From NCBI GenBank assembly GCA_051883775.1, contig JBJEUJ010000113.1, positions 1-60,502 on the forward strand: 60,502 nucleotides of DNA. Reading direction: 5' to 3'. The translations under genes and the position numbers were made by a program. The notes beneath the pieces are model-generated. The model did no database searches. It saw only the letters and a program-made list of their open reading frames with translations, and was not told the origin of the DNA. Numbering within the stretch: the stretch's first letter is position 1; each line of letters starts with the position of its first letter. Source of the stretch: Aristaeellaceae bacterium. Lineage in GTDB: Bacteria; Bacillota; Clostridia; Christensenellales; Aristaeellaceae. Positions 39,711-60,415 of the stretch are shown piece by piece.

Positions 39711-39879
39711 CGGCCTGCCATCAAGGGGCCTGCCTTCTGTGAGCAGCAGACGGCGGGTCCTTTTTGTCCGGCTGATGCCCGCTGCGCGCAGGCCCGGATG
39801 CGCGCTGGGGCCTGCCCATGCTGCGCGGTCATGCCGGATTCCACCGGGCCATGGCATCGGGCGGCAGGGCGCGAAGGGG

Positions 39880-40330
39880 GAGCATGCACCATGGATGTGC
39901 TTCCTGGCCTTCACGTTGATCCCGTTCATGCTCTCCTTTCGGCGTTCCTTTGCGGAGTACAGCGTGCCTTCTGCCGGTCGCTTGAGGGCGGAACGGCAAT
40001 AGCCGCTTGCTCGCCAGGGCCGCCCTGTTCAGCAGGCCCTGGGCGTCACCTTCAGGCGCGCCCTGATCGCGATTCCGCTGCATCGCGGTACGGATGAGCG
40101 TCCTCCAGCCTGGGGCAGCATGGCTTCTCCGTGACCGGCGCACCCATGCTGATTTTCCTCTCCGGCCTCCGGCAGACCCCGAGGAGCTGCTGCGGGGCGA
40201 CGGCGCGTCGGCTCTTCAGGATGACCTTTCCGCCGCTCAGCCCCGCCATGCAGGTGACCGGCGGCCCCATGAACAACACCCATGCTTGCGCCCTGGCCAG
40301 GGTGTTCTGTGAGAACGCGATCAAGTGAGC
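39880..40330 (+). pseudogene. Decayed MalF-type ABC permease remnant (frameshifted/internally deleted)
   Basis: There are fragments in two frames. An N-terminal-like piece is 'WMCFLAFTLIPFMLSF'. An EAA-loop piece is split between frames: 'GAPMLIFLSGLRQTP' and 'PEELLRGDGAS', then 'FRMTFPPLSP'. No intact ORF exists. Confidence 0.45.
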
Positions 40331-40442
40331 GCCACGGGAGAAGCCGGGGCTGTCGCTTTGCAACTGGAGAAATCAGTCAAAACGCGCTGAATGCGAAGAA
40401 GCGGGATCGTCGTGCCTGACAACCCCGCTTGAGCCTGCAGGG

Positions 40443-40477
40443 AAACAAAAAATCCGAACCGGTGACCGGTTCGGATT
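40443..40477 (-). terminator. Minus-strand intrinsic terminator abutting repeat copy 1
   Basis: A perfect 12-bp stem, AATCCGAACCGG-tga-CCGGTTCGGATT (40451-40477). On the minus strand it is followed by UUUUUUGUUU (40443-40452). Confidence 0.6.
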
Positions 40478-40481
40478 TGTG

Positions 40482-40891
40482 CGTGGAGCATAGGGGATTC
40501 GAAGCGCGTCAATGTCTTCCCATGACGTCCATTGATGTCACTTCCGGCATTACTCTGTTTCCAAATAAGGAGATTATATCAATCAGGATCCCATAACATA
40601 CCACATGGTTCATGGTACTGATAATGGTATTTGGTCAGGCTGAAGCAGTCGGGTTCAGTTCAGAATTATCCAATATTGTGCGGGTTATCACCATAGAGCT
40701 GGCCCCCAATACAATACAAAGCGTATCATATGCGCCGAAGACTTTTTGCTTCACATATTTTCCGGACAGATAGATTCGCACACGATATAACCCGGCTGCA
40801 ATATGCGGTTATGGATGACCACGGATCTCGTTGGTTTCAACTGCAGGTCAGTGTTCTGTACCATCCTGAAATGTTCTATACAAGTGCTCCG
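40482..40891. repeat. ~410-bp direct repeat, copy 1 (partner 53563..53973)
   Basis: Hand alignment is collinear from CGTGGAGCA to GTGCTCCG. A 142-nt core (40624-40765 versus 53705-53846) differs at only 5 positions. The flanking blocks are more diverged and include small indels. Confidence 0.85.
40483..40503 (-). other. tRNA 3'-end-like fragment (T-loop to discriminator): att-core candidate, copy 1
   Basis: The minus strand reads TTCGAATCCCCTATGCTCCAC, that is T-loop TTCGAAT, a T-stem 3' arm and an acceptor 3' arm. No complementary T-stem 5' arm and no D or anticodon arms lie upstream, so this is a fragment, not a gene. Confidence 0.5.
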
Positions 40892-41374
40892 CCATGAGCT
40901 TTATTGGAAGTGATTGCATGAACCAAAGATATACATGGAGAAATCATCATGTCATTCTTTTCTGGCAGTGCGCAGTATCTGAACAATACCGGCCAGTGTG
41001 GATGCTCTGGTTTCAGGCTTTAGCTGACATTCCCAGATCGTCATTACATGCCAGCCTATCCGGATCAGGCGCTGAGTACCTCCTGATCACGAAGGACAGT
41101 CCTGCCAAGCTTTTCATGCCAGAATGCCTCGCTCGACTTCGGCAAAAAAGCACCTGCAGCCTTCATGTTTATGCCAGAAGCAGCCATTGGCAAAAGATAC
41201 CGTAAGTGCGAATGCTGTGGCTGTACAACCACCGGGCGTTCCGGCTTCGGCAGTCATGTGCCCTTCTTTTGCCTCACAATCCGAAGCAAGCTGCAGATGG
41301 TATCGATGACTGTTTTGCCCGGAAGCATGTACTGCAAGAGAAAGCCTCTATTCCAGATGGTCGATCCTATTCAA

Positions 41375-43717
41375 TTACCAGCTGTATGGTTCAATGAAAA
41401 TCTGATAGTATTGCGTAAGCGCCGGTTCAATATAGGCCTTGACCTCTTTCAGATACTCCTCCGCCGGCCTGTCCCGGATATCTTCTTCCTTGCCGGACAG
41501 GAAATCGACCACGCTGATCACCACGCCGCCCACCGGACTCTCCATGGCCGTTTCCCGTACAGCAGTGTATTTCTCAAACTCAAGTGCGGTCATGGCCAGC
41601 ATGCTGTCCTTGAACTCAACAAAGGGCTGGTAGCATTCCTTCATATACTGCTCGTAAGAACCCACCTGATTCCCGATCAGCCCGCTGAACGAATCCGCCA
41701 GCTTCTTGCGAATGGGATGCGCCATCTGAACCGTTGTCATGAGATCAATCTGCGCGGAAAAGCCATCAGCTGCGTTGAATGACAAATTGGCAACCAGATT
41801 CGTACCATCCACAAACAATTTCCACTTGGGGCCCAAAACCGCTGCTGTCAGGGCTTCATACGCCTTGTCCACCGCGAAATCGGCTGTACACTGGCATCCA
41901 TGGGTGATCAGCAGAAACTGGATCTGACTCCGGGAATCCTTGGTCATGTCTTTCAGGTATTGCGCAGCATAATCCATGCTGCTGTCGCCAAGGTCGCTGA
42001 ATGCGTCGATGTATGGCTGGACATCTTCCAGGGTGACGGACTGGTAGCTGCAATATTCCTGACAGACATCCAGCAGAATGTCCAGCACATCCACGAGCAG
42101 CTCAGTCTGTTCGAACATAGTACTGTAGATTTCTGTTTTCTGACTGACGATGAGCTTGTTCAGATATTCATAGAACGCATCGTGCGTAAGCGCCTTCGTG
42201 CCGACAGCATCGTACATCTGCATGTAAGCCTGCCATGCCTTCCGGGCGTCCTGGGCGTCCGCTTGCCTGATGAGCTCCATATCAAAGCCGGCTATTTCCA
42301 GCACCTGCAGGATGTCCTTTCTCTCAATCGCCGTCTGATCCTTGGTGGATGCCAGCTGCTCCATCACCGATTTGGCCATCAATGCGCCCCGGGCCGGCGG
42401 AAGCAACTGAAGCTCCTCCAGGTCGCCGGATATGGTTTTGTACAGTTCAGCGGTGACATAGAATACCCGGTTCATGTCGCTATGATAGGTTTTATCACCG
42501 ATCTGATACTGCCCGGAGTAAAGGATGTCATGCATGAGCACAACAGCCTGGTAGCCCAGCTGCAGTGAATCGACATAGTACTTCAGCTGATTCCGGGTAC
42601 AGATGCACCTGAAGCAGTCGCCGCTTGTCATGTCTGTGCAGATGACCTGGCCTGTTGCCATGTCCACATAGTCAACCCTGACGTATACATTGATGATGTC
42701 ATATTCGCCCATGATTTCTGGCAGCATGGCAGACGAGCAACGGAAGGTTGTGTCCGTTACACAGGCATCATTGAGCCTAAGCGTGTTTTCAGGATCGGAC
42801 ATATCCACCAGATAGACATTGAAGCCCCTGCCCGCGATGGGCTCATGATTGAGCTGCCAGCCGATTTCAAACATGTATTCCTGTTCAAGAACAGGCCAGA
42901 AAAGCGAGCTTCCGCTCATGAAGGTGATCTCAAGCGCTTCCTGCTGGCCGGGCTGTTCTGCCGTCGCAGCGCCGTCAGCGGTCATGGAGCCTCTGTCCTT
43001 TCCGGACACGGATGCAAGCAGCGCATCCGCGTCAAAGGCCAGCAAATTGGCAGCCTGTGAAGGCGTCGCATACCGGCAGTATTCCTCCCGAAAGGCGTAC
43101 TTCAGCCCTTGCTCCACACAATACTGATGGGCCTCGGAATCTTTCACCACGAGGAAGGTTATGCCATCCGTATTCTGCAGCAGGCGTTCACGCGCATGAA
43201 AGGGGCCATTGGGCAGTGACACGTATTTCAACGTACCCTGCGGGTTCCCCAGATAGGAAACGGATTGATACGTATCGGGAATGACGATCATCTCCAGCGG
43301 TGCCAGCAGCGGTACGGCAGGTTCGCGCCAGTCCTCGCCGTATATGGCGTAGGTAAAATCGAATATGCCCGCATAACCGCCTTCGAGCGAACGGATGGTG
43401 TGAAACTGCTTCAGTTCGCCATTCAGGTAATAGCAGGAGGGAAAGACGACAACACTGTCCACCTCGGATGCCCTGAAGCCTCCGCAGGTGCCCCCGGCAA
43501 CATCCACGGTAAAATGATCCAGCCAATCCATCGGGTCATCATATTCTCCGCGCTGAAAGGACGCCACAGGCGTGGTCATCATCAGGGTGCTGTGATCACC
43601 ATTGCAGCCCGGCGCATGCGCGGAGTCCGCAGCGGCGATCGCTTCCGCCGCAAGAAGGACAAGGCACAGTACAAACGCGTACAGGAACCTGACAGCTTTC
43701 CATTCATGGAGACGCAT
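41375..43717 (-). CDS. Secreted hypothetical protein (~780 aa): degenerate LRR-like N-domain and long alpha-helical C-domain
   Basis: Start moved to the ATG at 43717, 9 nt after AGGAAAGG. Signal peptide 'FLYAFVLCLVLLAAEAIAAADSA'. 'IPDTYQSVSYLGN...LKYVSLP...VVKDSEAHQYCVEQGLKY' resembles the end of BspA-type LRR domains. The rest is unassigned. Confidence 0.6.
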   Translation of the reverse strand: MRLHEWKAVRFLYAFVLCLVLLAAEAIAAADSAHAPGCNGDHSTLMMTTPVASFQRGEYDDPMDWLDHFTVDVAGGTCGGFRASEVDSVVVFPSCYYLNGELKQFHTIRSLEGGYAGIFDFTYAIYGEDWREPAVPLLAPLEMIVIPDTYQSVSYLGNPQGTLKYVSLPNGPFHARERLLQNTDGITFLVVKDSEAHQYCVEQGLKYAFREEYCRYATPSQAANLLAFDADALLASVSGKDRGSMTADGAATAEQPGQQEALEITFMSGSSLFWPVLEQEYMFEIGWQLNHEPIAGRGFNVYLVDMSDPENTLRLNDACVTDTTFRCSSAMLPEIMGEYDIINVYVRVDYVDMATGQVICTDMTSGDCFRCICTRNQLKYYVDSLQLGYQAVVLMHDILYSGQYQIGDKTYHSDMNRVFYVTAELYKTISGDLEELQLLPPARGALMAKSVMEQLASTKDQTAIERKDILQVLEIAGFDMELIRQADAQDARKAWQAYMQMYDAVGTKALTHDAFYEYLNKLIVSQKTEIYSTMFEQTELLVDVLDILLDVCQEYCSYQSVTLEDVQPYIDAFSDLGDSSMDYAAQYLKDMTKDSRSQIQFLLITHGCQCTADFAVDKAYEALTAAVLGPKWKLFVDGTNLVANLSFNAADGFSAQIDLMTTVQMAHPIRKKLADSFSGLIGNQVGSYEQYMKECYQPFVEFKDSMLAMTALEFEKYTAVRETAMESPVGGVVISVVDFLSGKEEDIRDRPAEEYLKEVKAYIEPALTQYYQIFIEPYSW

Positions 43718-43925
43718 ATGAATCATCCTTTCCTGCGTATCACTCAGGTCATATCATGGACAGGCGCCATATCAGCATGGTACGCCGCCCGGTTTCTCCA
43801 TGGAGAAGACATTTAGCGCAACAGACGGCTTGCAGCCCCGCGAGCTGCGGAACCTGTGATCCCTATCCTGCCTGACGCGCTGAGCCATGTGCACCCCTGC
43901 GTCTGTCAACGACACCGTTCGCTGC

Positions 43926-46049
43926 TCATGAGGCATCGGACGGCATGATCATCGCATACTTTTCCCCATTGTGCAGCCATGTCAATATCGTCATCGGATT
44001 GTTTGGCAGCTCCTCCAGCAGATCATAGAGATACATCGGGCTCCTTTGTACTTTGTACAGCTGATCGCCGCAGCAGATATACCCTGTCCCGTCTGCGAAG
44101 CCATCGCAGACAATCATCTGATAGGAAGAAATCGCTTTGCGCCAGATGATATTCATTGTTTCAGTCTGCAGGATGACCTTGTGGTCGCGGTTCATCAGCA
44201 CGCACTGCGCTGCATCAGAATCGCTGACCATGTACAGCTCCTTATTGACAAGCTGGACATTACCCGGCGTGGATCCATTCAGCTTTCGTTCTTCGTCATC
44301 CGGAGAAACCATGCAGACATCGGAGCCTTTTCCCATGAGGAACACATCGTCGAACCAGTCAAGCAGCATGTCATACCCGGGCGCTATGGCGATGTCTCCG
44401 CCGCGCCATACCATACCGATCCTGCCATTCTGCACAACGGGCAGCAGATCATGCCAGTCGGGAAGCCTTTTAGCATTCTGCAGCAAGCCTGCAAAATCTT
44501 CCAGCGGGAAAGAGAACGCTTCGCTGTTCAGCCGCTGCCCCCGGCTGTCAATATACCATACCTGATTGTTGCTTGCAACAAAAGCCGTATCCGCATTGAG
44601 GGATGCAAGCATGTCCCACTGCGCATCTGTGATCCTGCGACCGGTTTGATCCACCAAGCCGCATTGCTGATCAGCAGTCCGGACAATGAAGGTATCATTG
44701 GAGAAGGACGCAACGGCTTGCACATCATTCGGCAGCGCGATGCTATCGTTTCGGAAATAAAGGGCTGTACTATTTTCCTGCTTGATGAAAGCACCCTTTT
44801 CGCCATTTGGCATGGTGATTACATCCACCATGCTCACCTTTTCCCATTGATTGGCATCGCTGAATAGAACATATTCGTCCCGCGGTCCGTTCCTGTAATC
44901 GTTGTACAGGGACAGGCACCATATGCCGTTGACCGACTGGCTGTAGCAGCCATTCCAGACAGGATCGATGATGTAGGTCTGCCGGGCGACATCGTATACA
45001 CCGTACTGCCTCTGGTCATCCGTCCTGACCGTAACGATAAAGTAATTGTCACGGATTTGTTCAAGCGATTCGCATGAAAGTGAAACGTCGGTGCCCGTGT
45101 GCATATTGATGATATGCCACATATCACCCACCTGACAGGTACAGTATGTATGATCCAAAATATCAACGAAATCATCACTGATTGCCGGAACAATCTGTTT
45201 CTTGTTATCCAGGTCATACAGGCCCATCAGCTGGCCGTCACACAGCGTTGCATACCAATGTCCGTCATGTTCATTGACATACAAGCTATCATAGGCAGGC
45301 TCCAGGATGACATTCAGGTTTTTGTCCAGAATGCCTTTCTTCTTGTCAATGGCTACGATATAGTAATCGTCCTCTGTGCGATCGATATGATCGTATATAC
45401 CCGGCTGTACGGCGTATGTGCCCTGCTTGTCAACGATACCGTATTCACACATCGCAGACATATGACGGCTTTCGATTTCTTCGTCCACGGTGATCTGAAG
45501 CACCGCATAGCCATTCACAAAATCCATCGATGAGCATGGTGTATAGGCACATTTGCCCACCTCATCCTTCCATTGCAGCACATTGTGTCCATCGATATCC
45601 AGATAGGAGATTCCCTCCCACCACTCGTATACGCCAATCAAGCCTTCGGAGTACGTGCCGATATCTTCATAGGAGCGATCCTGCGGAAGCACCTGATGGC
45701 CCTGACGGTCGATCAGCTGGCAGGATGCATTGGTCATATACACCTTGGCATAGCCATTGGCATCAAAATCCTCAGCATACACATAGGTGGGCGGAACGGT
45801 CACATTGCCATGACGGTCAATGAAGCCATAAAGCCCGTTATCGGGATTTCCGTTTGAATGAAGCGTTCCTACAAAGAATCTGGCGAAGCCGTTGACGAAG
45901 GGATACACGTAGTCGGCATCACCAATATCAATCCATGTTGTCCGATCATTTGCATCCTGAATCATGGACGATTGTTCTGCATGGCAGATCGTCCCAAGCA
46001 TCAGAACAGCCAGGAGTACCGCAAGCATCATCTTCGGTCGCAGCTTCAT
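43926..46049 (-). CDS. Secreted WG-repeat (KWG-type beta-repeat) protein
   Basis: Start at 46049, after AAGGAGG. Leader 'MKLRPKMMLAVLLAVLMLGTICHAEQSSMIQD'. There are many repeats of the pattern 'F.NG.A.V....K.G.ID..G..V.P..Y', for example 'FVNGFARFFVG...LYGFIDRHGNVTVPPTYVYAEDFDANGYAKVY'. Confidence 0.75.
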   Translation of the reverse strand: MKLRPKMMLAVLLAVLMLGTICHAEQSSMIQDANDRTTWIDIGDADYVYPFVNGFARFFVGTLHSNGNPDNGLYGFIDRHGNVTVPPTYVYAEDFDANGYAKVYMTNASCQLIDRQGHQVLPQDRSYEDIGTYSEGLIGVYEWWEGISYLDIDGHNVLQWKDEVGKCAYTPCSSMDFVNGYAVLQITVDEEIESRHMSAMCEYGIVDKQGTYAVQPGIYDHIDRTEDDYYIVAIDKKKGILDKNLNVILEPAYDSLYVNEHDGHWYATLCDGQLMGLYDLDNKKQIVPAISDDFVDILDHTYCTCQVGDMWHIINMHTGTDVSLSCESLEQIRDNYFIVTVRTDDQRQYGVYDVARQTYIIDPVWNGCYSQSVNGIWCLSLYNDYRNGPRDEYVLFSDANQWEKVSMVDVITMPNGEKGAFIKQENSTALYFRNDSIALPNDVQAVASFSNDTFIVRTADQQCGLVDQTGRRITDAQWDMLASLNADTAFVASNNQVWYIDSRGQRLNSEAFSFPLEDFAGLLQNAKRLPDWHDLLPVVQNGRIGMVWRGGDIAIAPGYDMLLDWFDDVFLMGKGSDVCMVSPDDEERKLNGSTPGNVQLVNKELYMVSDSDAAQCVLMNRDHKVILQTETMNIIWRKAISSYQMIVCDGFADGTGYICCGDQLYKVQRSPMYLYDLLEELPNNPMTILTWLHNGEKYAMIMPSDAS

Positions 46050-46128
46050 CAAGGATAACCTCCTTTTTTCATTCACCATTCCAGGCCACGCACAGAACCT
46101 TTGGGAAAAGCTTCCGCTATGCTCTGTA

Positions 46129-46314
46129 TTACGCCCAAGAGGGTTTGATGATCAGTACGGGAACAATGTCATGAGCGGAGACAGTCTCTATCATATCAAA
46201 GATGATATTGCTATAGGAAACCAACGCTTTCAATACAGCTTTGCTAAGCTGTGTTGCAATGCTGAAGCGTTTGTTTATCCGGCTTTTCCACACCGAAGCA
46301 ACCCACCTCATCAA
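46129..46314 (-). pseudogene. Relic of a DUF6273-like gene 3' end (paralogous to the end of 47965..49521)
   Basis: 'AVLKALVSYSNIIFDMIETVSAHDIVPVLIIKPSWA*' corresponds to 'AVLKASDTYGNIAFETAEPGSAHDIVPVLILKPAWE*' in the intact gene. It occupies the same position, just upstream of a leader-bearing gene. Confidence 0.55.
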
Positions 46315-47885
46315 GGCTGCATATCACACTGGCTGTACTCGTTGTTGCCCACGCCGACCACGGTGCCGTCGGCCTTCAGGCCCACGGTATGATGTTCTCC
46401 TGCGCTGATGGCCACGATGTCTTTCCAGCCGCTCACATCGCACTCACCACACCCTTTAGGGCCTTCGGCGACAACGGTTCCATCGGCTTTCAGGCCAACG
46501 ATGTGGGAGCTTCCTGCACTAATGGCTGCGATGTCTGTCCAGCCACTCACATTGTACCGATTGGCCCACTTTCCTATAACGATAACGGTGCCATCAGCTT
46601 TCAGGCCAACCGTGTGGTAACTTCCTGCACTGATGGCCACGATGTCTGTCCAGTCACTTACATTGCACTGCCCATCGAGATTCAATCCCAAGGCTACAAC
46701 GGTGCCATCAGCTTTCAGAGCAACAATGTGGCTCTCTCCTGCGCTGACGGCCACAATATCTCTCCAGTCACTCACATTGCTCTGATCGAACCAAATATCT
46801 CCCACTGCGACAACGGTATCATCGGCTTTCAGACCAACGGTGCAGCTACACCCTGCGCTGATGGCCACGATGTCGCTCCAGTCACTCACATTGCACTCAC
46901 CGTGCTCATTCCACCCCGCAGCGACAACGGTGCCGTCGGCTTTCAGCCCGACGGTGTGATGTACTCCTGCACTGATGGCCACGATGTCTGTCCAGCCGCT
47001 TACATCGCACTCGCCGTACTCATTGCTGCCCACAGCCATCACCGTTCCATCTTCCCTCACGGCTGCGGTATGGTAGCCACCTACAGCAATGGTATTCTGC
47101 CCGGACAGGACGCGCGTGGTGGTCTGTTCGGGCTGCGTACTGCTTTCGGGGGATTTCTTCCTCAGGTAGATCACCTCGCCGCCTGTATTCAGCGAGAGGC
47201 TTCCGTCCTCATGCAACGCAACATATTGGTTGTCACTGACATACAGCATGCCGTCTTTCAGTGTCATCCGATAGGACTCTGACGGCTGCTGAAACAGCTT
47301 GTCCTGGTCGCCCGCAAAGAACAGCGTCATCGTACCATGATCAATGACGATCCCGAAAAAAAAGTATGACAGCGACTTCGGAATCCCTACGTCGCCCTTG
47401 ATGACATAGGCGTCATGCCATGTGCCGTCGAACGCATCCATGGATGCCGCAGGAATGACAGCGGGTGTATTGGCTTCCGCCGAAGCGCTGCGGCCAAAGA
47501 TAACAACCGCGTTTCCATGGATGCTGACCAGATGGCCGTCAATCGCATAGCAGGTTTCAAAGAGAGAAGTGCCCCGGTACAGGCGCAGACACCCGTCCTC
47601 AATGCGCCAGGTATAGGCGTTGGCAGACCCCTGCTCAAATGTTTCAGCCGTCCCATCCTGATTGATCTGCAGCACCATGTTCTCCCCGAGGACGGATGGA
47701 TCAAACAGCTCGCCCTGGTATTCCGCGTAGGTGGCATACCAGCGGCCGGAACAGTCCCACTGGGTACCGCCTTCCTTCCTGACGCCCACATCCTGAATCA
47801 TGGATGACTGTTCCGCATGACCGATTGTTCCAAGCATCAAAGTGGTCAGGAGTACCGCAAGCAACATTTTCTGTCGAAGCTTCAT
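46311..47885 (-). CDS. Secreted protein with lipocalin-like N-domains and a seven-blade RCC1-like propeller
   Basis: Start at 47885, after AAAGGGGG. The leader 'MKLRQKMLLAVLLTTLMLGTIGHAEQSSMIQD' is nearly identical to that of the WG-repeat protein. There are seven tandem 37-38-aa units, 'IVAISAG..HTVGLKADGTVVA.G.N..G.C.VS.W.D'. Confidence 0.75.
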   Translation of the reverse strand: MKLRQKMLLAVLLTTLMLGTIGHAEQSSMIQDVGVRKEGGTQWDCSGRWYATYAEYQGELFDPSVLGENMVLQINQDGTAETFEQGSANAYTWRIEDGCLRLYRGTSLFETCYAIDGHLVSIHGNAVVIFGRSASAEANTPAVIPAASMDAFDGTWHDAYVIKGDVGIPKSLSYFFFGIVIDHGTMTLFFAGDQDKLFQQPSESYRMTLKDGMLYVSDNQYVALHEDGSLSLNTGGEVIYLRKKSPESSTQPEQTTTRVLSGQNTIAVGGYHTAAVREDGTVMAVGSNEYGECDVSGWTDIVAISAGVHHTVGLKADGTVVAAGWNEHGECNVSDWSDIVAISAGCSCTVGLKADDTVVAVGDIWFDQSNVSDWRDIVAVSAGESHIVALKADGTVVALGLNLDGQCNVSDWTDIVAISAGSYHTVGLKADGTVIVIGKWANRYNVSGWTDIAAISAGSSHIVGLKADGTVVAEGPKGCGECDVSGWKDIVAISAGEHHTVGLKADGTVVGVGNNEYSQCDMQP

Positions 47886-47964
47886 GAAGTATACCCCCTT
47901 TTTTTCATTCATCATCGCAGGTCAAACACAGATTCTTCGGGAAAATACTTCCGCTATGCTCTGC

Positions 47965-49521
47965 TTACTCCCACGCAGGTTTTAGAATCAGCACGGGAAC
48001 AATGTCATGGGCAGAGCCGGGTTCAGCCGTTTCAAAGGCGATGTTGCCATAGGTGTCCGACGCCTTCAGTACAGCTTCTCGAAGCCAGAACTCGGACGCG
48101 CCCATCACATACGTATACCTTTTCTGGGAGCTTCCGCTCCTTTGATACACGTATTCGGATACATTGGCATCGACAACGGGATAACCGTAATTGGTCCCCC
48201 CCTGACGGGGCGCCTGATAGTTTTTGAATATTGCTTCGATTTCCTCCCGGGAGAGGATGGTGACTTCTTCGATCATTCTGGCTTCAGCAGGAGAAAACGC
48301 AGCATGGACAAAATCCTCGTTCAGCCATTGGTACAGCGAGCTATCTTCCCAGGCAACCTCCGCCGTGCCGGTGTGATAGGGCAGATACTCAAGCGCATTC
48401 GATGCCATGAGCATGATTTTTGATGAATCATTCAGATAAGGAATGTAAGACCATCTGATTGCCTCCGGCCCATTGCCGGTATTGCCATCCTGTTCATAGC
48501 GTCCGAATACCGGCGAAGTATCCTGTGCATGAGCAATCGCGGTACTGATTGGTTCACTGCAATGATCCAACCAGCAGGTGTAGGCGGTACTCATCAGGGT
48601 ATCGGCATAGTCAGTACTTAAGCGATCGTAAACCTGCAGCAGATCCAGGAACACCTGGTGACTTGTGCTGCAGTAGGACTCAGGATCCTGGTAATCCGCC
48701 ATCAACCGCTTCGTGAACTTCAGCATGTTGTCAGGCGAGTCAAAAAACGCATGGGTGGATGCCTGAATATATGCCAAAGCTCTGGGGATATCGTTCAGCC
48801 AGTGATCATAGGCAATATTCAGTAAGGGCCCGATGGCTTCTGCGTCAACAAACTCATAAATCGCAAGCAAATCCGTGAAGGCCTGACCGCTTGTATAACG
48901 GGTGGATTCCGTATCCTGATATTCGGTCAGCATCCTTTCTGACAGGCTTCGGATTCTGTCCCGGGCATCCTTGACGCCATTGGCTTTCTGATAGAATGCA
49001 AGCGCCTTGAGCACATCAGAATTCTCATATTTCCTGCCTTGCAGATAACAGTATTCTTCCACTGTGCGAACGCCCTTGATCAGCACACCGTCCTGCAGCA
49101 CCAGCTCAATCGCGCCGTCCGTGTTCGTCCGGAAAAGGCCTGTTGCATAGCCGTAGTAGCCGAAGCTGAAGTCGGAGAAGGTAATCCCGGCAAAGCATTC
49201 GCCCTCCCGCAGCTTATTGAGACGCTGCGAAAAAGATTGCTCCATGCTGTACGAGGCTGTTACAGGAATGTCAAGCCAGTTCGTTATGGCGACAGGTATA
49301 TCCAACCAGTTCGATTCGGCGGCAGAAACATCCTGCCAATTCATTTCGATGGTATCATCCTCCCGGATGGTGATACAGACAAACCTGTCATCCTCCAGAA
49401 AGCCGCCATATGTATCCACAAAGTCGACCTTTGTCAGCGAGAACAGCACGCCCGCTGCTGCGCCCGCGACCAACAAAACAGTCAGAACCGCAACCAGACA
49501 CTTCACGCTTTTGCTTTTCAT
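47965..49521 (-). CDS. Membrane-anchored protein with internal helical repeats and a C-terminal DUF6273-like domain
   Basis: N-terminal TM 'CLVAVLTVLLVAGAAAGVLF'. There is a tandem 9-aa duplication, 'NWLDIPVAITNWLDIPVTA', and two ~65-aa helical repeats. The C-terminal 'WEDSSLYQWLNEDFVHAAFSPAE...ILSREE...FWLRE...IVPVLILKPAWE' fits my recollection of DUF6273. Confidence 0.65.
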   Translation of the reverse strand: MKSKSVKCLVAVLTVLLVAGAAAGVLFSLTKVDFVDTYGGFLEDDRFVCITIREDDTIEMNWQDVSAAESNWLDIPVAITNWLDIPVTASYSMEQSFSQRLNKLREGECFAGITFSDFSFGYYGYATGLFRTNTDGAIELVLQDGVLIKGVRTVEEYCYLQGRKYENSDVLKALAFYQKANGVKDARDRIRSLSERMLTEYQDTESTRYTSGQAFTDLLAIYEFVDAEAIGPLLNIAYDHWLNDIPRALAYIQASTHAFFDSPDNMLKFTKRLMADYQDPESYCSTSHQVFLDLLQVYDRLSTDYADTLMSTAYTCWLDHCSEPISTAIAHAQDTSPVFGRYEQDGNTGNGPEAIRWSYIPYLNDSSKIMLMASNALEYLPYHTGTAEVAWEDSSLYQWLNEDFVHAAFSPAEARMIEEVTILSREEIEAIFKNYQAPRQGGTNYGYPVVDANVSEYVYQRSGSSQKRYTYVMGASEFWLREAVLKASDTYGNIAFETAEPGSAHDIVPVLILKPAWE

Positions 49522-49545
49522 ACTTGCCGATTCCCTCCATTGATA

Positions 49546-49890
49546 TTATTGTCCGTAGCTGAACAGTGAATCCACGTCAATGGAGGTGACGCCCTTTTTC
49601 AGCGTAACCTCCTCAAATTCAATGGTGTCGTTTGCGATTTTCCCGGTGATGCTTTGGCTGAAGCCGTAGGCCATCACAGTGAGCGTCAGCGTTGAGCCCT
49701 CCACCCTGTAGCTGCCGGAAACAGGAAACCCCAGGACATTGGTCGTTGCAGTGCCATCCTTGTTCAACTCGACCGTCATCGGAATGCCGAGCGCATTCAT
49801 ACCGCCATAGACGCCGGAATAATCCTTGCTGCACCCGGCAAGCAGCAGAACTGCCGCAGCAAGCGAAACCGCAAGCCATCTTCTTTTCAT
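49546..49890 (-). CDS. Small lipoprotein (114 aa), first gene of the island operon
   Basis: Lipobox 'VLLLAGCSK' and RBS GGAAGGATG. It has a beta-rich, lipocalin-like pattern, 'GSYRVEGSTLTLTV'. Confidence 0.7.
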   Translation of the reverse strand: MKRRWLAVSLAAAVLLLAGCSKDYSGVYGGMNALGIPMTVELNKDGTATTNVLGFPVSGSYRVEGSTLTLTVMAYGFSQSITGKIANDTIEFEEVTLKKGVTSIDVDSLFSYGQ

Positions 49891-49936
49891 GGTGTTTCAT
49901 CCTTCCATTCATTCGTACTGACAACGGAATATCCTT

Positions 49937-49965
49937 ATTCTATCCGGAACACAGGGAAGGAGCAA
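49937..49965 (-). promoter_or_regulatory. Promoter of the island secreted-protein operon (TTGCTC-17-TAGAAT on the minus strand)
   Basis: The -10 TAGAAT is the complement of 49937-49942. The -35 TTGCTC is the complement of 49960-49965. The spacer is 17 nt. Confidence 0.4.
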
Positions 49966-50004
49966 ACCGCCTGTGTTGCATATGCTGCCGCTGATCATTT
50001 TCCG

Positions 50005-50033
50005 TTGCAAATTGGCAAGAAAATCTTTATAAT
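50005..50033 (+). promoter_or_regulatory. Promoter of the LytTR/kinase operon (TTGCAA-17-TATAAT)
   Basis: -35 at 50005-50010 and -10 at 50028-50033, with a 17-nt spacer. RBS GGAGG at 50064-50068 precedes the ATG at 50079. Confidence 0.5.
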
Positions 50034-50078
50034 TTATGTAGATGTTTCCGCATTTCCTTCTGCAGGAGGTGTTACTCG

Positions 50079-50810
50079 ATGCTGCCTGTTGTTTTGCTGG
50101 ATGATGATGTCCACTATTCCAGCATATTCTCCTTACGCTTGCAGCGTGTCGCGGAGAAGCTGGGCTTTCCCTGCGAGCTTCGGCTGTGCGCCGAGAGCGC
50201 AGAGCAGGTTTTCACCTATGCCCAGGCGCATCCCGAGGGCAACCTGTACTTTCTGGATATTGAGCTGAACGAGGAAATGAACGGCCTGGCCGTGGCACGT
50301 CAGCTGCACCTGCTGGATCCGCATGGGTATATCGTTTTTATCACCGCTTATGAACACTATATCTGGGACGCCATGCATACGCATGTGTTCGACTATCTGC
50401 TCAAGCCGCTGACGGATGAAGCCATTGCCGCCTGCCTCCGCGGCATCAGCCGTGACCGGCAGAAAAAGCCCTTGTCCCGCTACAGCCTGGTTGTGCACAG
50501 CGGCACCCATACAATGATGATGAACCAGGAGGATATCCTCTATATCCATGTGAACGGCAACTATCTCACCGCCGTCATGCAGCAGAGCTGTCCGTATCAG
50601 TGGTACGGGCGGATGCGCCAGGTGGCGCCGCTGCTGGCAGAGGGTATGTTTATGCAGATCAACCGCAGCGACTGGGTGGCGCTGCGGCACATTCAGGGGC
50701 TTGATGCCAATGACAGCTGCTGTGTGCTGTCCAATGGCGAAATCCTGTCCGTATCCCGCCGCAGACTGGCGGAGCTCAGGAGCGCCCTGCAGGGGAGGGC
50801 TCAGCAGTGA
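50079..50810 (+). CDS. LytTR-family (AgrA-like) response regulator
   Basis: The receiver domain has all conserved residues: 'LLDDD', phospho-Asp context 'YFLDIEL', 'VFITAY' and 'DYLLKP'. The C-terminal LytTR-like domain includes 'EDILYIHVNGNYLTAV...MQINRSDWVALRHI'. Confidence 0.85.
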   Translation: MLPVVLLDDDVHYSSIFSLRLQRVAEKLGFPCELRLCAESAEQVFTYAQAHPEGNLYFLDIELNEEMNGLAVARQLHLLDPHGYIVFITAYEHYIWDAMHTHVFDYLLKPLTDEAIAACLRGISRDRQKKPLSRYSLVVHSGTHTMMMNQEDILYIHVNGNYLTAVMQQSCPYQWYGRMRQVAPLLAEGMFMQINRSDWVALRHIQGLDANDSCCVLSNGEILSVSRRRLAELRSALQGRAQQ

Positions 50811-52126
50811 TCAGCCTGGAGGTGTGCTGCGTCTGGTTCATTGTCAACATGGCAGACGGATCGATAATGTACCTGTTTTCCAGCATCATCCTGAACAGAA
50901 GGGTGACCTGGTCAGGATGGCTGGGCTATCTTTCCATCCTGATGGTGGTCGAGCTGGCCTCCATGCTGCTGATGGACGGGGGCTTCAGCGGCTGGAGCCT
51001 GTTGCTGGGGCTTGCGGAGCTGATCGGCATAGCGTTCATGGTGTTCCGCTACAGGGGCTGGGAGCTTGCCATTGGTGTGGCAACCATGCTGTGTGTCAAT
51101 ATGACGCTGGCGCTCTTGTCCGGAGGGGTGTCCATGCTGCTGCTGGGGGTGGAGCAGGTCAATGCCCTGATGCTGGATTGGCGGTGGCCCCGGCTGACAA
51201 TTGTCGCAGCGCACCTGCCGCTGCTGGTGCTGCTCCTGCCGGTGTACCAGCTGCGGAACTGGTGGCGGAACCGTCGTGCGGAGCTGCCTGATGGGTTCTA
51301 CTACATGCGCGCCCTGATTCTGCTGGCGGCTGCGGTAACCTGTATTGTGCTGCTGTTCAATCAGCTGCAGAGCATGGCGCTGGCCCAGCGGCTGAACCAG
51401 GTGGCGCTGCTCTTTGGCGTGGCAGCCGCAGTGCTGGCCATATGCCTGGCGCACCTGGCCCAGGATGTACGCTATCTGGGCATGCGCAAGCGGCATGAAA
51501 CCCTGTCCCGGAGCAAGCAGCTCAATGACGCCCTGGTGGAGGATATGCGTCAATTCCGCGGCAGCATGATCGCCATGGTGGATGGCCTGGGCGATGTGCT
51601 GCTGTCCGGCGCGCCCGAGGCCCAGCGGGCCTACTATGATCAGATGGCGCGGCAGTGCGCCCGGATCAACCATGAGAATGTACTGACCCTGCAGCGGCTG
51701 AATGAACCGGCGCTGGCCACGCTCCTGCTCAACAAGCTGGAACGGAGCAGACAATATGAGCTGCCCATGTACCTGCAGCTGACGGGTATGCCCGCCTTCA
51801 GCCGAAGGGTTCCATCCGCCGTATTGTGCCAGGCGGTGGGCGTGCTGGTGGACAACGCCATCGAGGCGGCGGCGGACTCCGAATATCCCCGGGTCAGCAT
51901 TGAGCTGGCACAGATCCCCAGGGGTGTTGAAATCAATGTGCTGAACACCTGCCCGCAGGAGCTTGACGTTCAGCGCTTTCTGGATGGAGAAGCCCTGTCC
52001 ACCAAAGGGGAAGGGCATGGGGACGGCCTGGCCAGCGTGGCGGCCCTGTGCAGGCGGTACCCCTGTATGCAGCTGAACAGATATGCCCGGGGCCGCTTTA
52101 TCGAATGCTCGCTGACAATCCGATAA
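50807..52126 (+). CDS. AgrC-like (HPK10/GHKL) membrane kinase paralogue 1: intact ATP-binding domain, phospho-acceptor His replaced by Gly
   Basis: Six or seven N-terminal TM helices. The H-box position reads 'DMRQFRGSMIAM' (GGC at 51560-51562) where the family has F-(R/K)-H-(D/N). The N-box 'VLVDNAIEAA' and G-box 'STKGEGHGDGLASV' are intact. The GTG start overlaps the RR stop. Confidence 0.75.
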   Translation: MISLEVCCVWFIVNMADGSIMYLFSSIILNRRVTWSGWLGYLSILMVVELASMLLMDGGFSGWSLLLGLAELIGIAFMVFRYRGWELAIGVATMLCVNMTLALLSGGVSMLLLGVEQVNALMLDWRWPRLTIVAAHLPLLVLLLPVYQLRNWWRNRRAELPDGFYYMRALILLAAAVTCIVLLFNQLQSMALAQRLNQVALLFGVAAAVLAICLAHLAQDVRYLGMRKRHETLSRSKQLNDALVEDMRQFRGSMIAMVDGLGDVLLSGAPEAQRAYYDQMARQCARINHENVLTLQRLNEPALATLLLNKLERSRQYELPMYLQLTGMPAFSRRVPSAVLCQAVGVLVDNAIEAAADSEYPRVSIELAQIPRGVEINVLNTCPQELDVQRFLDGEALSTKGEGHGDGLASVAALCRRYPCMQLNRYARGRFIECSLTIR

Positions 52127-52144
52127 GCAGGAGGCACAGCAGGA

Positions 52145-53422
52145 ATGTACACAACCGTGGAGTACTGGATCACTCTGGTGCTGAGAACCCTGCTGGATTG
52201 TGTCAACATGTACGCCGTTTGCTCCGCAGCGGTGGATGAAAAAATGACGGTCAGAGGCTACCTCCTGTTCTGCGCGCTGGAGACCGCCGTGGAGTGGGGG
52301 TACTGCCTGATCTGGGCACCGACCTATTCGGGCACCGCGTTTCTTGGCGCCATGGTGGTGGTGATGCTCCATGCGCGCATTGTGTATCACCGCCGCGGGC
52401 GGGCGTTTCTGCGGGCATCGGCAGCCATGCTGCTGGCGCAGTGTGCGTTCGTGGCGCTGTGCGCGCCGGTGGGTGTGCTGCTGTGGGGTGCAGAAAAGGC
52501 TAATGCCATTGTTGTCAGCAGCGGGTTTGACCGTGTGCGGCAGAGCGTGCTGAACGTAGCCCTGACGCCGCCCACCTGCCTGATCATCCGCCAGGTGCGC
52601 AAGCAGGCGCTGCGCTGCAGGGAGAAGGCGTCGGACATCCTGTACATGCTGCGTTCCGTGCTGCTGCTGGCGGTGGCGGTGGTATGTGCCTTTGTCCTGC
52701 TGAACCAGACCTCCTCCCTGACGTCATCCTCCCGTTTGCTGCCCATCACGATCAGTCTGATGGCCATCTGCCTGATGGCCTTTGTGTGTCTCTCCTACCT
52801 GATTGAGGACTTTCATTTCCTGAGCATGCGCCGCATGAACGACACGCTGGAGAGGCAAAAGCGGATGACAGAGGCGCTCATTGAGGATACGCGGCATTTC
52901 CGGCACAATGTGCTGAACATGATCTACGGCTTTGAGGGCATGCTCCTCAGCGAAGACCCGGAGCTGCGCCTGCGTTATTATCGTCAGCTGGCCGGCGAAT
53001 GTGCCAAGATCAACAATGAGAATATCCTGAACCTGCAGCGGCTGAACCATCCTGACCTGGAGGCGCTGCTGCTGGGCAAAATTCAACAGGCGCACAACCT
53101 GAACATTCCGCTCTTTGTTACCATCGGGAAGCTGCCGCGCATCCGCAAGGCTTCCGGGCTTGCGCTGCATCAGGCAATGGATCGGGCGGTGGATGACGCC
53201 ATCCGCATGGCGCAGAGCAGCGCCGATGCCCATGTTGGCGTATGGCTTGGCCTCGAAGGCAGCAACATCGGGCTGCGGGTGCTCTGCACCTGTGATGCGC
53301 CTGTCGCTCAGGATCGGAATGGCGCCCTGCTTCCGGGCATGGAGACTGTGCAGGCTGATGTGCCCGTCATGCTGCAAAGACAGGGCAGATTCCTGATCCA
53401 GACCATGATGTTTTTGACGTAA
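52145..53422 (+). CDS. AgrC-like membrane kinase paralogue 2: H-box intact, ATP-binding N and G boxes degenerate
   Basis: RBS AGGAGG. The TM sensor domain is followed by 'DTRHFRHNVLNM' (His codon CAC at 52904-52906). The N-box position reads 'AVDDAIRMA' (Asn to Asp). No 'KG..G.GL' box is present in the shortened C-terminus. Confidence 0.75.
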   Translation: MYTTVEYWITLVLRTLLDCVNMYAVCSAAVDEKMTVRGYLLFCALETAVEWGYCLIWAPTYSGTAFLGAMVVVMLHARIVYHRRGRAFLRASAAMLLAQCAFVALCAPVGVLLWGAEKANAIVVSSGFDRVRQSVLNVALTPPTCLIIRQVRKQALRCREKASDILYMLRSVLLLAVAVVCAFVLLNQTSSLTSSSRLLPITISLMAICLMAFVCLSYLIEDFHFLSMRRMNDTLERQKRMTEALIEDTRHFRHNVLNMIYGFEGMLLSEDPELRLRYYRQLAGECAKINNENILNLQRLNHPDLEALLLGKIQQAHNLNIPLFVTIGKLPRIRKASGLALHQAMDRAVDDAIRMAQSSADAHVGVWLGLEGSNIGLRVLCTCDAPVAQDRNGALLPGMETVQADVPVMLQRQGRFLIQTMMFLT

Positions 53423-53521
53423 ATCCTCTCATTTTCCCAACAACAGATCCCCCTGTTGTCGATGAACAACCATGATCGGAGATCATTTGCCCGGTAAGAA
53501 AGACCACTAAAGTCGAACAGT

Positions 53522-53558
53522 AAAAAAAGCGGAAATGTCATTTCTGACAATCCCGCTT
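53522..53558 (-). terminator. Minus-strand intrinsic terminator abutting repeat copy 2
   Basis: A bipartite hairpin, AAGCGG..TGTCA-tttc-TGACA..CCCGCTT (53527-53558). On the minus strand it is followed by a U7 run (A-run 53522-53528). A homologous hairpin lies at 40399-40430. Confidence 0.55.
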
Positions 53559-53562
53559 CGGA

Positions 53563-53973
53563 CGTGGAGCACAGGGGATTCGAAGTGCGTCAGTGGTATC
53601 CCATGCCACCCATTGATGTCACATCCGGCACCACTCATCATCCATATAAGGAGATTGTTTCAATCAGTATCCCATAACATACCACCTATTTCATGGTGCA
53701 GAACATGGTATTTGGTCAGGTTGAAGCAGTCAGGTTCAGTTCAGAATCATCCAATATTGTGCGGGTTATCACCATAGAGCTGGCCCCCAATACAATACAA
53801 AGCGTATCCTATGCGCCGAAGACTTTTTGCTTCACACATTTTCCGGGACAGCTATATTCGCATGCGCTGCAACCTGGCTGCGATATGCGGATATGTATGA
53901 CCACGGATCCCGCTGGTTTCATCTGCAGGTCAGTGCTCTACACCATCCTGAAATGTTCTTTTCAGGTGCTCCG
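53563..53973. repeat. ~410-bp direct repeat, copy 2 (partner 40482..40891)
   Basis: See copy 1. It has the same orientation and the same position relative to the att-like fragment and a minus-strand terminator. Confidence 0.85.
53564..53584 (-). other. tRNA 3'-end-like fragment: att-core candidate, copy 2
   Basis: The minus strand reads TTCGAATCCCCTGTGCTCCAC. It differs from copy 1 by one acceptor-arm position (G versus A). Confidence 0.5.
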
Positions 53974-54870: not shown

Positions 54871-55821
54871 ATGATGGATATGAACTGTAAACCCATCGTG
54901 ATCAGCTGCGATCACGGCTATGGGAATTGCAAAAGCAGCAACATTATTTTCCCCACCGGTATCGAGTGTGTTGCATCGAAGCCGGTTTTCCCGGCGGATG
55001 TGCTGGAGTGGAATGGCAGGCTGTACATCATCGGCTATGGGCACAAGGAATTCATCGACGACAAGACCGCCGATGAGGATTTCCGTCTGCTGACCATGGC
55101 GCTGATTGCCAAGGAACTGAAGCTCCGTCAACGCACCGAGGCAGTGATTTATCTCGCTGCCGGGCTGCCGTTGACCTGGGCCCGCGACCAGCTGGAGCAT
55201 TTCCGCGGTTACCTGATGTCTCCCCGGGAATATGACTTCATCCTGAACGATGAGAAGTACAGCGTCCGCATTGAAGACGTGCTCTTGTATCCGCAGGGCT
55301 TTGCGGCGCTGGCGGACAGTCTGGATACCTTCACCGGCATGAATATGATTTGCGATATCGGCAACGGCACCATGTCCACCATGTTCATCAACAACGGCAC
55401 GCCTGATCCGATGCGCTGCTACACCGAAAAGCTGGGCGTGCACCAGTGTACCCTGGCGCTGAAGGACGCGGTGATGCAGCACTTCCACATAGTGCTGGAT
55501 GATCACATCATTGAGGACTATCTCCGCACCGGAGAAACGACAGTTGCGCCAAATATCCGCAGCGTGATGGAATCCACCGTGCGGCGCTATGTGGAGAAGC
55601 TGATGCGGAGTATGCGTGAGCATGAATATAACCCCGACATGATGAAGCTGTACATCATGGGCGGCGGAGGATGCCTGATCCGCCACTTTGCCGATCCGGA
55701 GACCGCGACCCACATATCCTTCGGGCGCATCCAAATCGAGCCGGATATCCACGCCACCGCCAAGGGCTATGAGCGGCTTGCCCGGGCGCAGCTCAGGGAG
55801 CGTGGCATTGATGTCGAGTAA
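54871..55821 (+). CDS. ParM/StbA-family actin-like segregation ATPase
   Basis: The actin-fold motifs are phosphate-1 'ISCDHGYGNCK', 'LAAGLPL', phosphate-2 'MICDIGNGTMS' and adenosine 'LYIMGGGG'. Confidence 0.8.
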   Translation: MMDMNCKPIVISCDHGYGNCKSSNIIFPTGIECVASKPVFPADVLEWNGRLYIIGYGHKEFIDDKTADEDFRLLTMALIAKELKLRQRTEAVIYLAAGLPLTWARDQLEHFRGYLMSPREYDFILNDEKYSVRIEDVLLYPQGFAALADSLDTFTGMNMICDIGNGTMSTMFINNGTPDPMRCYTEKLGVHQCTLALKDAVMQHFHIVLDDHIIEDYLRTGETTVAPNIRSVMESTVRRYVEKLMRSMREHEYNPDMMKLYIMGGGGCLIRHFADPETATHISFGRIQIEPDIHATAKGYERLARAQLRERGIDVE

Positions 55822-60360: not shown

Positions 60361-60415
60361 AAAACTTTTCTCCATCGTTTCCTCTTCTCTTCTACTGATT
60401 TATCTTTTTTATCAG

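Follow-up and report, generated by a model that had tools for sequence, protein, structure and literature searches.

The 60,502-nt window analysed here, which is a whole contig and the longest on record, probably preserves two elements that integrated successively at the 3' end of a tRNA-Ala(CGC/GGC) gene, of which the left one (E1) would have decayed by deletion and the right one (E2) would be the newer. E1 is a 13-kb island of low GC whose two borders are formed by the copies of a 410-bp direct repeat, and the second copy also opens E2, which reaches the contig end (Table 1). The two copies are identical at 360 of 415 alignment columns (86.7%) with a single 1-nt indel, and over about 100 nt in the centre the identity rises to 96-98%. 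Both units are of foreign base composition, with a GC content of 0.54 in E1 and in E2 compared to 0.62 in the chromosomal part of the window, and the GC content falls from 0.66 to about 0.5 over 40.3-40.6 kb, across att fragment 1.

Table 1. Features of E1, E2 and their borders, in window coordinates.
Feature	Position	Strand	Description
Hairpin H1	40399-40430	-	-22.6 kcal/mol, no U-tract; in high-GC chromosomal flank
Intrinsic terminator	40450-40478	-	13-bp stem and U-tract; directly downstream of att fragment 1 in tRNA sense
Repeat copy 1	40482-40891	none	att fragment and 390-bp arm; non-coding; ends at GTGCTCCG (40884-40891)
att fragment 1	40483-40503	-	21 nt identical to tRNA-Ala(CGC/GGC) from T-loop to 3' end; canonical sequence
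E1 cargo, five genes	41375-49890	-	783-aa secreted protein; 717-aa WG-repeat protein; 534-aa RCC1-repeat protein; 518-aa DUF6273 protein; 114-aa small protein
LytTR response regulator (E1 cargo)	50079-50810	+	
GHKL histidine kinase (E1 cargo)	50807-52126	+	
Second kinase (E1 cargo)	52145-53422	+	AgrC-like, membrane; 425 aa; Pfam orphan
E1 right-arm remnant	53433-53562	none	about 130 nt; includes H2; homology to locus L089 stops at 53432
Hairpin H2	53527-53558	-	interrupted 14-bp stem, -19.5 kcal/mol, then U7
Repeat copy 2	53563-53973	none	att fragment and arm; ends at GTGCTCCG (53966-53973)
att fragment 2	53564-53584	-	same 21 nt as fragment 1 with one change, GTGCTCC for ATGCTCC
Partition module of E2	54871-56140	+	ParM/ALP-like ATPase, 54871-55821; small downstream ORF, about 55826-56140
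GC-rich repeat block	56230-56500	none	upstream of relaxase gene; candidate oriT
Putative MobV-type relaxase	56573-57859	+	sub-threshold Mob_Pre; HNDR and HLDETSPHIH align to MobM (PDB 4LVI)
Primase-like protein	57863-58573	+	CHC2 zinc finger
VapE-like helicase/NTPase	58593-59948	+	called start 58593; longest ORF from 58488
Xis	60112-60360	+	excisionase-family HTH; TIGR01764, above cutoff
Tail	60361-60502	none	GTTGACA/TGTCAAC repeats, resembling xis-int spacer of locus L091

Both repeat copies open with GTGGAGCA(T/C)AGGGGATTCGAA, the reverse complement of TTCGAATCCCCT(A/G)TGCTCCAC, and the match of the two 21-nt fragments to tRNA-Ala starts at the T-loop and extends one base past the discriminator. 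An earlier note on this DNA had proposed that each copy begins with the 3' part of a minus-strand tRNA that is devoid of a 5' T-stem, D arm or anticodon arm, and both parts of this proposal hold: tRNA-Ala genes (CGC/GGC) with the identical end were found at 10 loci, neither fragment continues into D, anticodon or 5' T-stem sequence, and ARAGORN and Rfam detected no tRNA in the window. The corresponding 20-mer occurs 26 times in IMG/VR, 7 times as the 3' terminus of an intact tRNA-Ala (CGC or GGC) and once as that of a tmRNA (L073), and it is also the tRNA-Ala(CGC) end in the JGI loci L100, L101 and L103. Among the IMG/VR occurrences that have no tRNA, 10 of 18 lie within 160 bp of a tyrosine integrase gene, indicating that this core is widely used as an att site. 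These sequence matches support a reading of both fragments as true att-type remnants, derived from a tRNA-Ala CGC/GGC gene; as the tmRNA of L073 shares this end, a tmRNA gene is a less likely but conceivable target. The single change in fragment 2, G for A, would give a G-U pair in the acceptor stem. A canonical outer fragment and a variant inner fragment are what the integration order predicts, the inner one being the end supplied by an element; we read fragment 1 as the displaced 3' end of the host gene, canonical as expected, and fragment 2 as a tRNA end that E1 brought in and E2 later displaced.

Terminators on the tRNA strand are present after both fragments, as the same note had claimed, namely the one at 40450-40478 and H2, both with a U-tract, which supports the conclusion that each element-side junction has its own terminator for the tRNA. 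The note had also described a homologue of H2 to the left of copy 1, separated from the fragment by an insertion of some 50 nt with a perfect 12-bp terminator. This was borne out for the homology, since H1 and H2 have equal length and are identical at 24 of 32 positions, and for the intervening stretch (40431-40482), which contains the terminator and makes the distance from H1 to its fragment 52 nt longer than that for H2; the terminator stem measures 13 bp and H1 has no U-tract. Besides H1 and H2, the pattern AAGCGG..CCGCTT occurs once more in the window, at an unrelated site. The H1/H2 homology with its 52-nt offset is not explained by a simple model of successive integration and counts against it. 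Homology on both sides of the core, H1/H2 to the left and the arm to the right, is unusual for a purely site-specific product, and could suggest that a 450-bp unit was duplicated inside one element by homologous or illegitimate recombination, the 13 kb in between being the cargo of that element. We consider such a duplication very unlikely, given that a divergence of 13% that includes the core is too high for a recent in-place copy, that the 52-nt offset separates H1 from fragment 1, and that the outer copy falls exactly on the compositional border with the chromosome.

The far end of the repeat has a feature of its own: an inverted repeat closes the unit, with GTGGAGCA(T/C) at the left and GTGCTCCG at the right, and the homology between the copies stops exactly there. 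This would be consistent with a MITE-like non-autonomous element of 410 bp that has tRNA-derived terminal inverted repeats and inserted twice, the att fragment being simply its end. However, there is no target-site duplication, the only two copies in the window and the collections searched are both at island borders, and a 21-nt tRNA-Ala identity in the orientation of the tRNA, followed by terminators, is the standard signature of integration (PMC4383910), making a MITE-like origin extremely improbable. A homologue of the 410-bp arm was sought in IMG/VR, in JGI metagenomes, in phage and plasmid collections and in 121 fetched loci, and none was recovered; its reading as an arm rests on the two copies in the window. 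The motif GGAGCAC at the far end prompted us to consider a tmRNA or tRNA-like gene, and this was rejected as the arm has no 5' strand of a T-stem and gave no match with ARAGORN or Rfam. A structured RNA was rejected as well: RNAalifold found a few compensatory pairs between the arm copies, but mutant resampling revealed no global signal, the predicted structure being kept by the substitutions between the copies to no greater extent than by random mutations (share of random mutants scoring at least as well, 0.2-0.86). The sole ORF common to both copies has six residue changes and is broken by the indel, which argues against a coding function, and a possible homology of the window arms to the left end of L091 scored no higher than shuffled controls.

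We read the arm of copy 1 as the P' arm of E1 and that of copy 2 as the P' arm of E2. Both contain a pair of short direct repeats, ATGGTAY at 40612 and 40624 in copy 1 and ATGGTGC/ATGGTAT at 53693 and 53705 in copy 2; the corresponding pair, with equal spacing (two ATGGTAC repeats at a distance of 12 nt), is found in the integrase-side arm of L091, the closest relative with a complete right end. The right border of E1 is much shorter. We read the remnant there as the P arm, and the ATGGTRY pair present in both 410-bp arms is absent from it, which makes an excision of E1 by itself doubtful.

E1 encodes secreted repeat proteins, along with a two-component system of Agr-like type. The earlier note described this unit as lacking mobility genes of the mob, primase or xis type, and we likewise found no relaxase, replication gene or oriT-like block between 40.5 and 53.6 kb and, by Pfam or NCBIfam, no recombinase in E1. 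A tblastn search with six tyrosine and serine recombinases of related elements returned nothing below E = 0.06, and in E1 nothing below E = 1. The 425-aa Pfam orphan, considered as a hidden recombinase, turned out to be an AgrC-like kinase. A copy of the E1 cargo is present elsewhere, in L089, and is 92% identical up to 10 nt past the last gene; beyond that point L089 runs into iterons and a promoter, where E1 has its att remnant. Such a divergence fits a decay of E1 by deletion. It may still be that the Int and Xis proteins of E2 could act on the sites of E1, for which the 87% identity of the arms and the ATGGTRY pair that they have in common with the integrase-side arm of L091 give indirect support, and we think that a joint excision of E1 and E2 would be likelier than an excision of E1 only. 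In a bolder version, E1 would be an active hitch-hiker, excised and carried by the integrase, excisionase and relaxase of its neighbour, for which it would have retained the 130-nt right arm and a 410-bp left arm that contains arm-type sites as well as a conserved, covarying hairpin; we regard this version as improbable. If true, it would constitute a cis-mobilised island system in Christensenellales, where we know of none described, and the border after xis would be a hot spot for the swapping of recombinase modules.

For E2 the gene content supports a mobilisable-element backbone. The primase (CHC2) and xis (TIGR01764) genes announced in the earlier note were recovered, and a VapE gene can be added to them, while the mob assignment is weak: the candidate relaxase reached 17.5 bits with Pfam Mob_Pre, below the cutoff of 25.5. 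Its top PDB match was the MobM relaxase (E = 0.76), with the two motifs aligned in order, and in a profile-profile comparison with Mob_Pre relatives the N-terminal motif region alone aligned, at 12% probability. The GC-rich block upstream of the relaxase gene shows 76-92% conservation in seven related elements and is present as a single copy in the window, with none in E1. In the 7 kb of E2 that lie on the contig we found no T4SS genes and no recombinase.

The contig breaks at a position that recurs. The window and three same-strain assemblies all end 0-140 nt past xis, and the only contigs recovered by exact protein identity to VapE, the primase, Xis or the product of the last E1 gene were short ones of the same strain, which end within arm 2 or 0-80 nt past xis and do not extend the window. 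The patterns of the tail had no match in IMG/VR. The contig thus holds neither an intact tRNA nor an integrase, and this counts against successive integration. In L091, whose VapE is 85% identical, xis is followed by a 375-aa tyrosine integrase, a 130-nt arm, a terminator and then CGTGGAGCA, and in L107, which has a relaxase of the same family, an integrase is followed by a convergent tRNA. From these cases we infer that E2 ends in an integrase, probably of the tyrosine type, adjoining an intact tRNA. Two details of L091 weigh on the other side: its contig holds just 9 nt of the tRNA end without the remaining tRNA, and the window diverges from it exactly at the stop codon of xis. Moreover, serine recombinases are as frequent as tyrosine ones among the relatives of E2, which swap the two kinds of module freely, and for this reason the integrase of E2 cannot be assumed from family membership.

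Two side observations concern this group of elements. Among E2-like elements the recombinase module differs from just downstream of xis onwards, and some of the relatives of E2 are serine-recombinase elements at tRNA-Ala.

The invisible integrase also raises the question of whether both units are immobile fossils, with no working integrase to the right and repeats that are mere relics. A right arm of E1 reduced to 130 nt without the repeat pair, the one-position difference between the cores and the divergent relaxase would all be compatible with this. Nevertheless, the ParM-like, primase, VapE and xis ORFs of E2 are intact and full length, its VapE is 74-85% identical to those of relatives that have recombinases, and assembly breaks that recur just past xis are less easily reconciled with plain chromosome than with a module that is shared or variable. 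We therefore see two dead units as possible but unlikely.

At the left, synteny with the nearest relatives (81% and 63% protein identity in the left flank) extends no further than 39713, a point at which these relatives lack a tRNA. No empty or singly occupied site was recovered among them, which again counts against successive integration. The stacking may in principle have taken place elsewhere, in an earlier host of lower GC content, so that a pre-assembled composite of E1 and E2 entered by a single integration and no accretion occurred in this lineage. The equal GC content of the two units, set against that of the host, would agree with such an entry, as would the junction of fragment 2 and CGTCCGAAGCGG, which is identical at 30 of 32 positions to the native flank of a tRNA-Ala fragment in L103, an unrelated rumen contig of 45-54% GC; the transfer of a whole CIME-ICE tandem has been observed (PMC5704250). 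On the other hand, arms that are 13% apart imply separate histories of the units either way, and entry as a composite is a variant of the main explanation that does not contradict it. To us it seems an unlikely course of events.

Returning to two successive integrations, we infer the order of events and the origin of E1 by deletion as follows. The target would be a tRNA-Ala gene on the minus strand past the right contig end, with an identity block shared with the elements from the T-loop to the discriminator. E1 would have entered first, its attP giving the gene a new 3' end (the G variant) and the terminator H2, while the original host 3' end (fragment 1) and the host terminator were moved to the far left. 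An internal deletion would then have removed the maintenance, transfer and recombination genes of E1, leaving about 13 kb of cargo, the 410-bp left arm and about 130 nt of the right arm. E2, equipped with a ParM, MobV-like relaxase, primase, VapE and Xis backbone and a related left arm, would next have integrated into the regenerated tRNA gene and displaced fragment 2.

The layout matches the scheme of accretion of a CIME with an IME or ICE described by Guedon et al. 2017 (PMC5704250), as the earlier note had suggested. E1 has att sites at both ends, fragment 1 with the 390-bp arm at the left and the remnant of about 130 nt with fragment 2 at the right. Since the stacking mechanism has already been described, the pair is a clean but ordinary example, and its value is that of a catalogued case and of a pointer to the two side observations above. 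It would mean that Aristaeellaceae, uncultured Clostridia of the gut and rumen, gain cargo through the stacking of elements at tRNA-Ala, here with exact junctions documented.

Among known systems, the CIME-ICE tandems of the ICESt1/ICESt3 family of Streptococcus thermophilus (PMC5704250) are similar in having an element without integration or transfer genes that has att sites at both ends and is placed in tandem with a neighbour of related att specificity at the 3' end of the target, the decayed unit being distal and the newer one next to the regenerated target. They differ in the target (fda there, tRNA-Ala here); our host is a gut or rumen bacterium of the Christensenellales (Aristaeellaceae), the partner is mobilisable rather than conjugative and shows no integrase within the window, and the right arm of E1 is very short. 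The IME_Sag2603_tRNALys tandem of Streptococcus agalactiae (PMC5704250) likewise places an IME at a tRNA 3' end beside a decayed element, with a chimeric internal att site between the two; in contrast, the decayed unit described here has no integrase and has an 87%-identical arm in common with its neighbour. The tRNA/tmRNA tandems in Islander (PMC4383910) resemble ours in their displaced 3' fragments of the same orientation at the far island end, represented here by the two att fragments, and in an identity block of the T-loop/acceptor class, but the regenerated intact tDNA is off the contig here. For a tandem to be accepted by Islander, every member must come with an integrase of its own (PMC4383910), so E1 would be filtered out, and cargo islands of this kind would escape standard island finders that demand one integrase for each unit. 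Finally, the Clostridia elements with MobV relaxase, primase, VapE and Xis (L001-L005, L091, L093 and L104) share with E2 the gene order, 57-85% VapE identity and, upstream of the relaxase gene, the conserved block rich in GC. Unlike E2, none of them has the 410-bp arm, and their recombinases and target sublocations differ, being either serine recombinases with a tRNA-Ala D-loop junction or Tn916-type and other tyrosine integrases.

Two copies of the 410-bp direct repeat described in the earlier note were recovered. In an alignment of 415 columns containing a single 1-nt indel, they are 86.7% identical, rising to 96-98% in a central stretch. Both copies begin with GTGGAGCA(T/C)AGGGGATTCGAA, which reads TTCGAATCCCCT(A/G)TGCTCCAC on the minus strand. 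No tRNA was detected across the whole window with ARAGORN and Rfam, and in a fuzzy scan of the window with whole tRNA-Ala sequences as queries only these two 3′ pieces matched. The piece opening copy 1 (fragment 1) is canonical, agreeing with every locus compared (IMG/VR, JGI); in its counterpart in copy 2 (fragment 2), G replaces A where base 7 pairs, giving a predicted G-U pair. A canonical outer and a variant inner fragment are expected if fragment 1 represents the host end, displaced outward, and fragment 2 was supplied by the first element. Reading in the tRNA sense, a 13-bp terminator comes after fragment 1, and the hairpin H2 (-19.5 kcal/mol) with U7 comes 5 nt after fragment 2. The related hairpin H1 (24/32 identical to H2; -22.6 kcal/mol) has no U-tract and lies 52 nt farther from fragment 1 than H2 does from fragment 2. 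GC content drops from 0.66 to about 0.5 over 40.3-40.6 kb, a stretch including fragment 1; overall it is 0.62 in the chromosome and 0.54 in both the 13-kb cargo island on the left (E1) and the right-hand unit (E2).

Coordinates of the features discussed
Feature	Sequence	Position
685-bp stretch	window	39714-40398
Hairpin H1	window	40399-40430
13-bp terminator	window	40450-40478
Repeat copy 1	window	40482-40891
Fragment 1	window	40483-40503
GTGCTCCG, copy 1	window	40884-40891
Paralogous 5′ regions	window	45953-46249; 47789-48085
RCC1-gene repeats	window	46348-47036
Match to L089	window	49515-53432
E1 right-arm remnant	window	53433-53562
Hairpin H2	window	53527-53558
Repeat copy 2	window	53563-53973
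Fragment 2	window	53564-53584
GTGCTCCG, copy 2	window	53966-53973
GC-rich block	window	56230-56500
27-nt repeats	window	56270-56375
GACTACAA iterons	window	59963-60063
Sequence after xis	window	60361-60502
GTTGACA/TGTCAAC repeats	window	60416-60492
174-nt tandem repeats	L094	11124-12829
AgrC-like kinase homologue	L088	6972-8252
tmRNA to CGTCGGAAGCGG	L103	8109-8747
tRNA-Ala(CGC) 3′ part	L005	6199-6257
tRNA-Ala(CGC) 3′ part	L093	13667-13725

The 20-mer of the fragment was present in 26 IMG/VR contigs; in seven it closes an intact tRNA-Ala (CGC or GGC) and in one a tmRNA. It also terminates tRNA-Ala(CGC) in the JGI metagenome contigs L100, L101, and L103. Since a tyrosine integrase gene lies within 160 bp of it in 10 of the 18 tRNA-less IMG/VR occurrences, the block is a commonly used att core. 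L103 (Ga0247611_10001917) carries a tmRNA, tRNA-Ala(CGC), 94 nt, a duplicate 19-nt 3′ fragment, and CGTCGGAAGCGG, in that order. The duplicate is a minimal scar at the att core that the window also shows, and its flank is identical to the window junction at fragment 2 at 30 of 32 positions.

The rest of each repeat copy, the arm, had no homologues in any collection searched. It encodes no conserved protein and is neither a tmRNA nor a member of a known RNA family. Global structure conservation did not exceed random expectation; a hairpin near the core of the arm keeps five pairs through six substitutions. The arms cease to be homologous exactly at GTGCTCCG, which repeats in inverted form the acceptor-stem 3′ strand opening each arm, so that the 410-bp unit is closed by a 9-bp inverted repeat, with no target duplication at the unit. 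An ATGGTRY pair with 12-nt spacing, as in the related element L091, occurs in both arms and is absent from the E1 right-arm remnant (~130 nt). From its position and this repeat pair, the arm is interpreted as the P′ arm belonging to a common type of attP.

Spanning 40.5-53.6 kb, E1 encodes a secreted protein of 783 aa, a WG-repeat protein, an RCC1-repeat protein, a DUF6273 protein, a small protein, a LytTR response regulator, and a GHKL kinase plus a second kinase, AgrC-like. Its reported lack of a recombinase was borne out with Pfam, NCBIfam, and tblastn using six recombinases of related elements. E1 is also a compositional mosaic, with a GC content of 0.52 in the repeat-protein part and 0.60 in the two-component part. 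L089, a contig from another sample, matches the end of the cargo at 92% identity and then continues into iterons and promoter-like sequence where E1 has its arm remnant and att fragment; the E1 cargo therefore also occurs elsewhere, attached to further DNA. This is consistent with an internal deletion in E1 that took out all sequence from the last kinase gene up to the final 130 nt of the arm. Neighbouring E1 genes have paralogous 5′ regions (74-81% identity), and six 114-nt repeats lie within the RCC1 gene. In L088, a homologue of the AgrC-like kinase (67% identity) lies in ordinary chromosome, in the company of a phosphate transporter and an oxidoreductase; no gene for a response regulator or histidine kinase was called next to it.

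E2 runs from 53.6 kb to the end of the window. Its products are a partition ATPase resembling ParM, a putative MobV-type relaxase, a CHC2 primase-like protein, VapE, and an excisionase-family HTH protein (xis). Of the mob, primase, and xis genes ascribed to this unit, the primase-like and xis genes were confirmed; the mob assignment is weak: the Pfam match was below threshold and the best PDB match was MobM (E = 0.76), with the HNDR and HLDETSPHIH motifs aligned in order. Upstream of the relaxase gene, a GC-rich block containing 27-nt repeats is an oriT candidate because it is 76-92% conserved in seven relatives (L001, L002, L004, L005, L053, L091, and L093), even among elements with differing relaxase family. 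E1 lacks this block. The interval from vapE to xis holds GACTACAA iterons in both orientations, and GTTGACA/TGTCAAC repeats lie 3′ of xis; L091 and L005 have similar motifs in the corresponding places.

The window is one entire contig, ending ~140 nt after xis, and it contains neither the predicted E2 integrase nor an intact tRNA. Same-strain contigs from other samples end within the copy-2 arm (L086, L087) or 0-80 nt after xis (L090, L098, L099). These consistent breaks suggest that a repeated or variable module starts just past xis, and the module borders appear to be points of repetition or heterogeneity. Searching with VapE yielded 59 genome loci together with metagenome contigs, and the recombinase module after xis differs among these relatives: large serine recombinases in L001, L002, L005, and L093, a Tn916-type tyrosine integrase in L003, and a 375-aa tyrosine integrase in L091/L092. 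As far as xis, the window matches L091 at 85% identity; the xis stop is the exact point where the two sequences part. L091 continues with the integrase, a 130-nt arm (two ATGGTAC repeats 12 nt apart), a terminator, and CGTGGAGCA, which corresponds to the opening 9 nt of the att fragment and has the window's orientation, the remaining tRNA being missing from the contig; L092, from the closest relative, stops 6 nt short of its att core. In L107, whose relaxase is of E2's family, a convergent tRNA comes after the integrase. Taken together, these observations indicate that an E2 right end with an integrase and an intact tRNA, as the earlier note predicted, is plausible.

Relatives of E2 with large serine recombinases terminate beside a tRNA-Ala(CGC) 3′ part beginning in the D-loop (L005, L093), and in IMG/VR and JGI contigs serine recombinase genes directly adjoin intact tRNA-Ala genes; L070, L101, and L061 also belong to this set of loci. 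In 2014, tyrosine recombinases were described as the only kind known to target tDNAs (PMC4383910).

The host is assigned to Aristaeellaceae from the organisms named as sources of the nearest homologues of the 379-aa protein encoded in the flank. These relatives offered no empty site to compare, synteny ending at window position 39713 with no tRNA beyond. In L094, a related Aristaeellaceae MAG (GCA_051886675.1), about 1.7 kb of GC-rich 174-nt tandem repeats with hairpins follow the orthologue of this gene; the same place in the window holds an unrelated 685-bp stretch (GC 0.66) with no convincing gene.

Together, these results uphold the proposed att-bounded tandem as an observation and support in part its interpretation as accretion. 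It is reasonably probable that the two elements integrated one after the other at tRNA-Ala and that the first has decayed; continued mobilisation of E1 by its neighbour seems unlikely. A review of integrative and mobilisable elements treats such cases as common: an integrated element decays to a cis-mobilisable element (CIME) that keeps its att sites (PMC5704250). In its sequence features E1 corresponds to a CIME, with att sites at both ends and no integration or transfer genes. The tDNA-plus-fragment signature and tandem arrays were described with Islander, which requires an integrase in each member (PMC4383910), whereas E1 has no recombinase. The case is a further example of the known CIME situation, in a poorly studied lineage.
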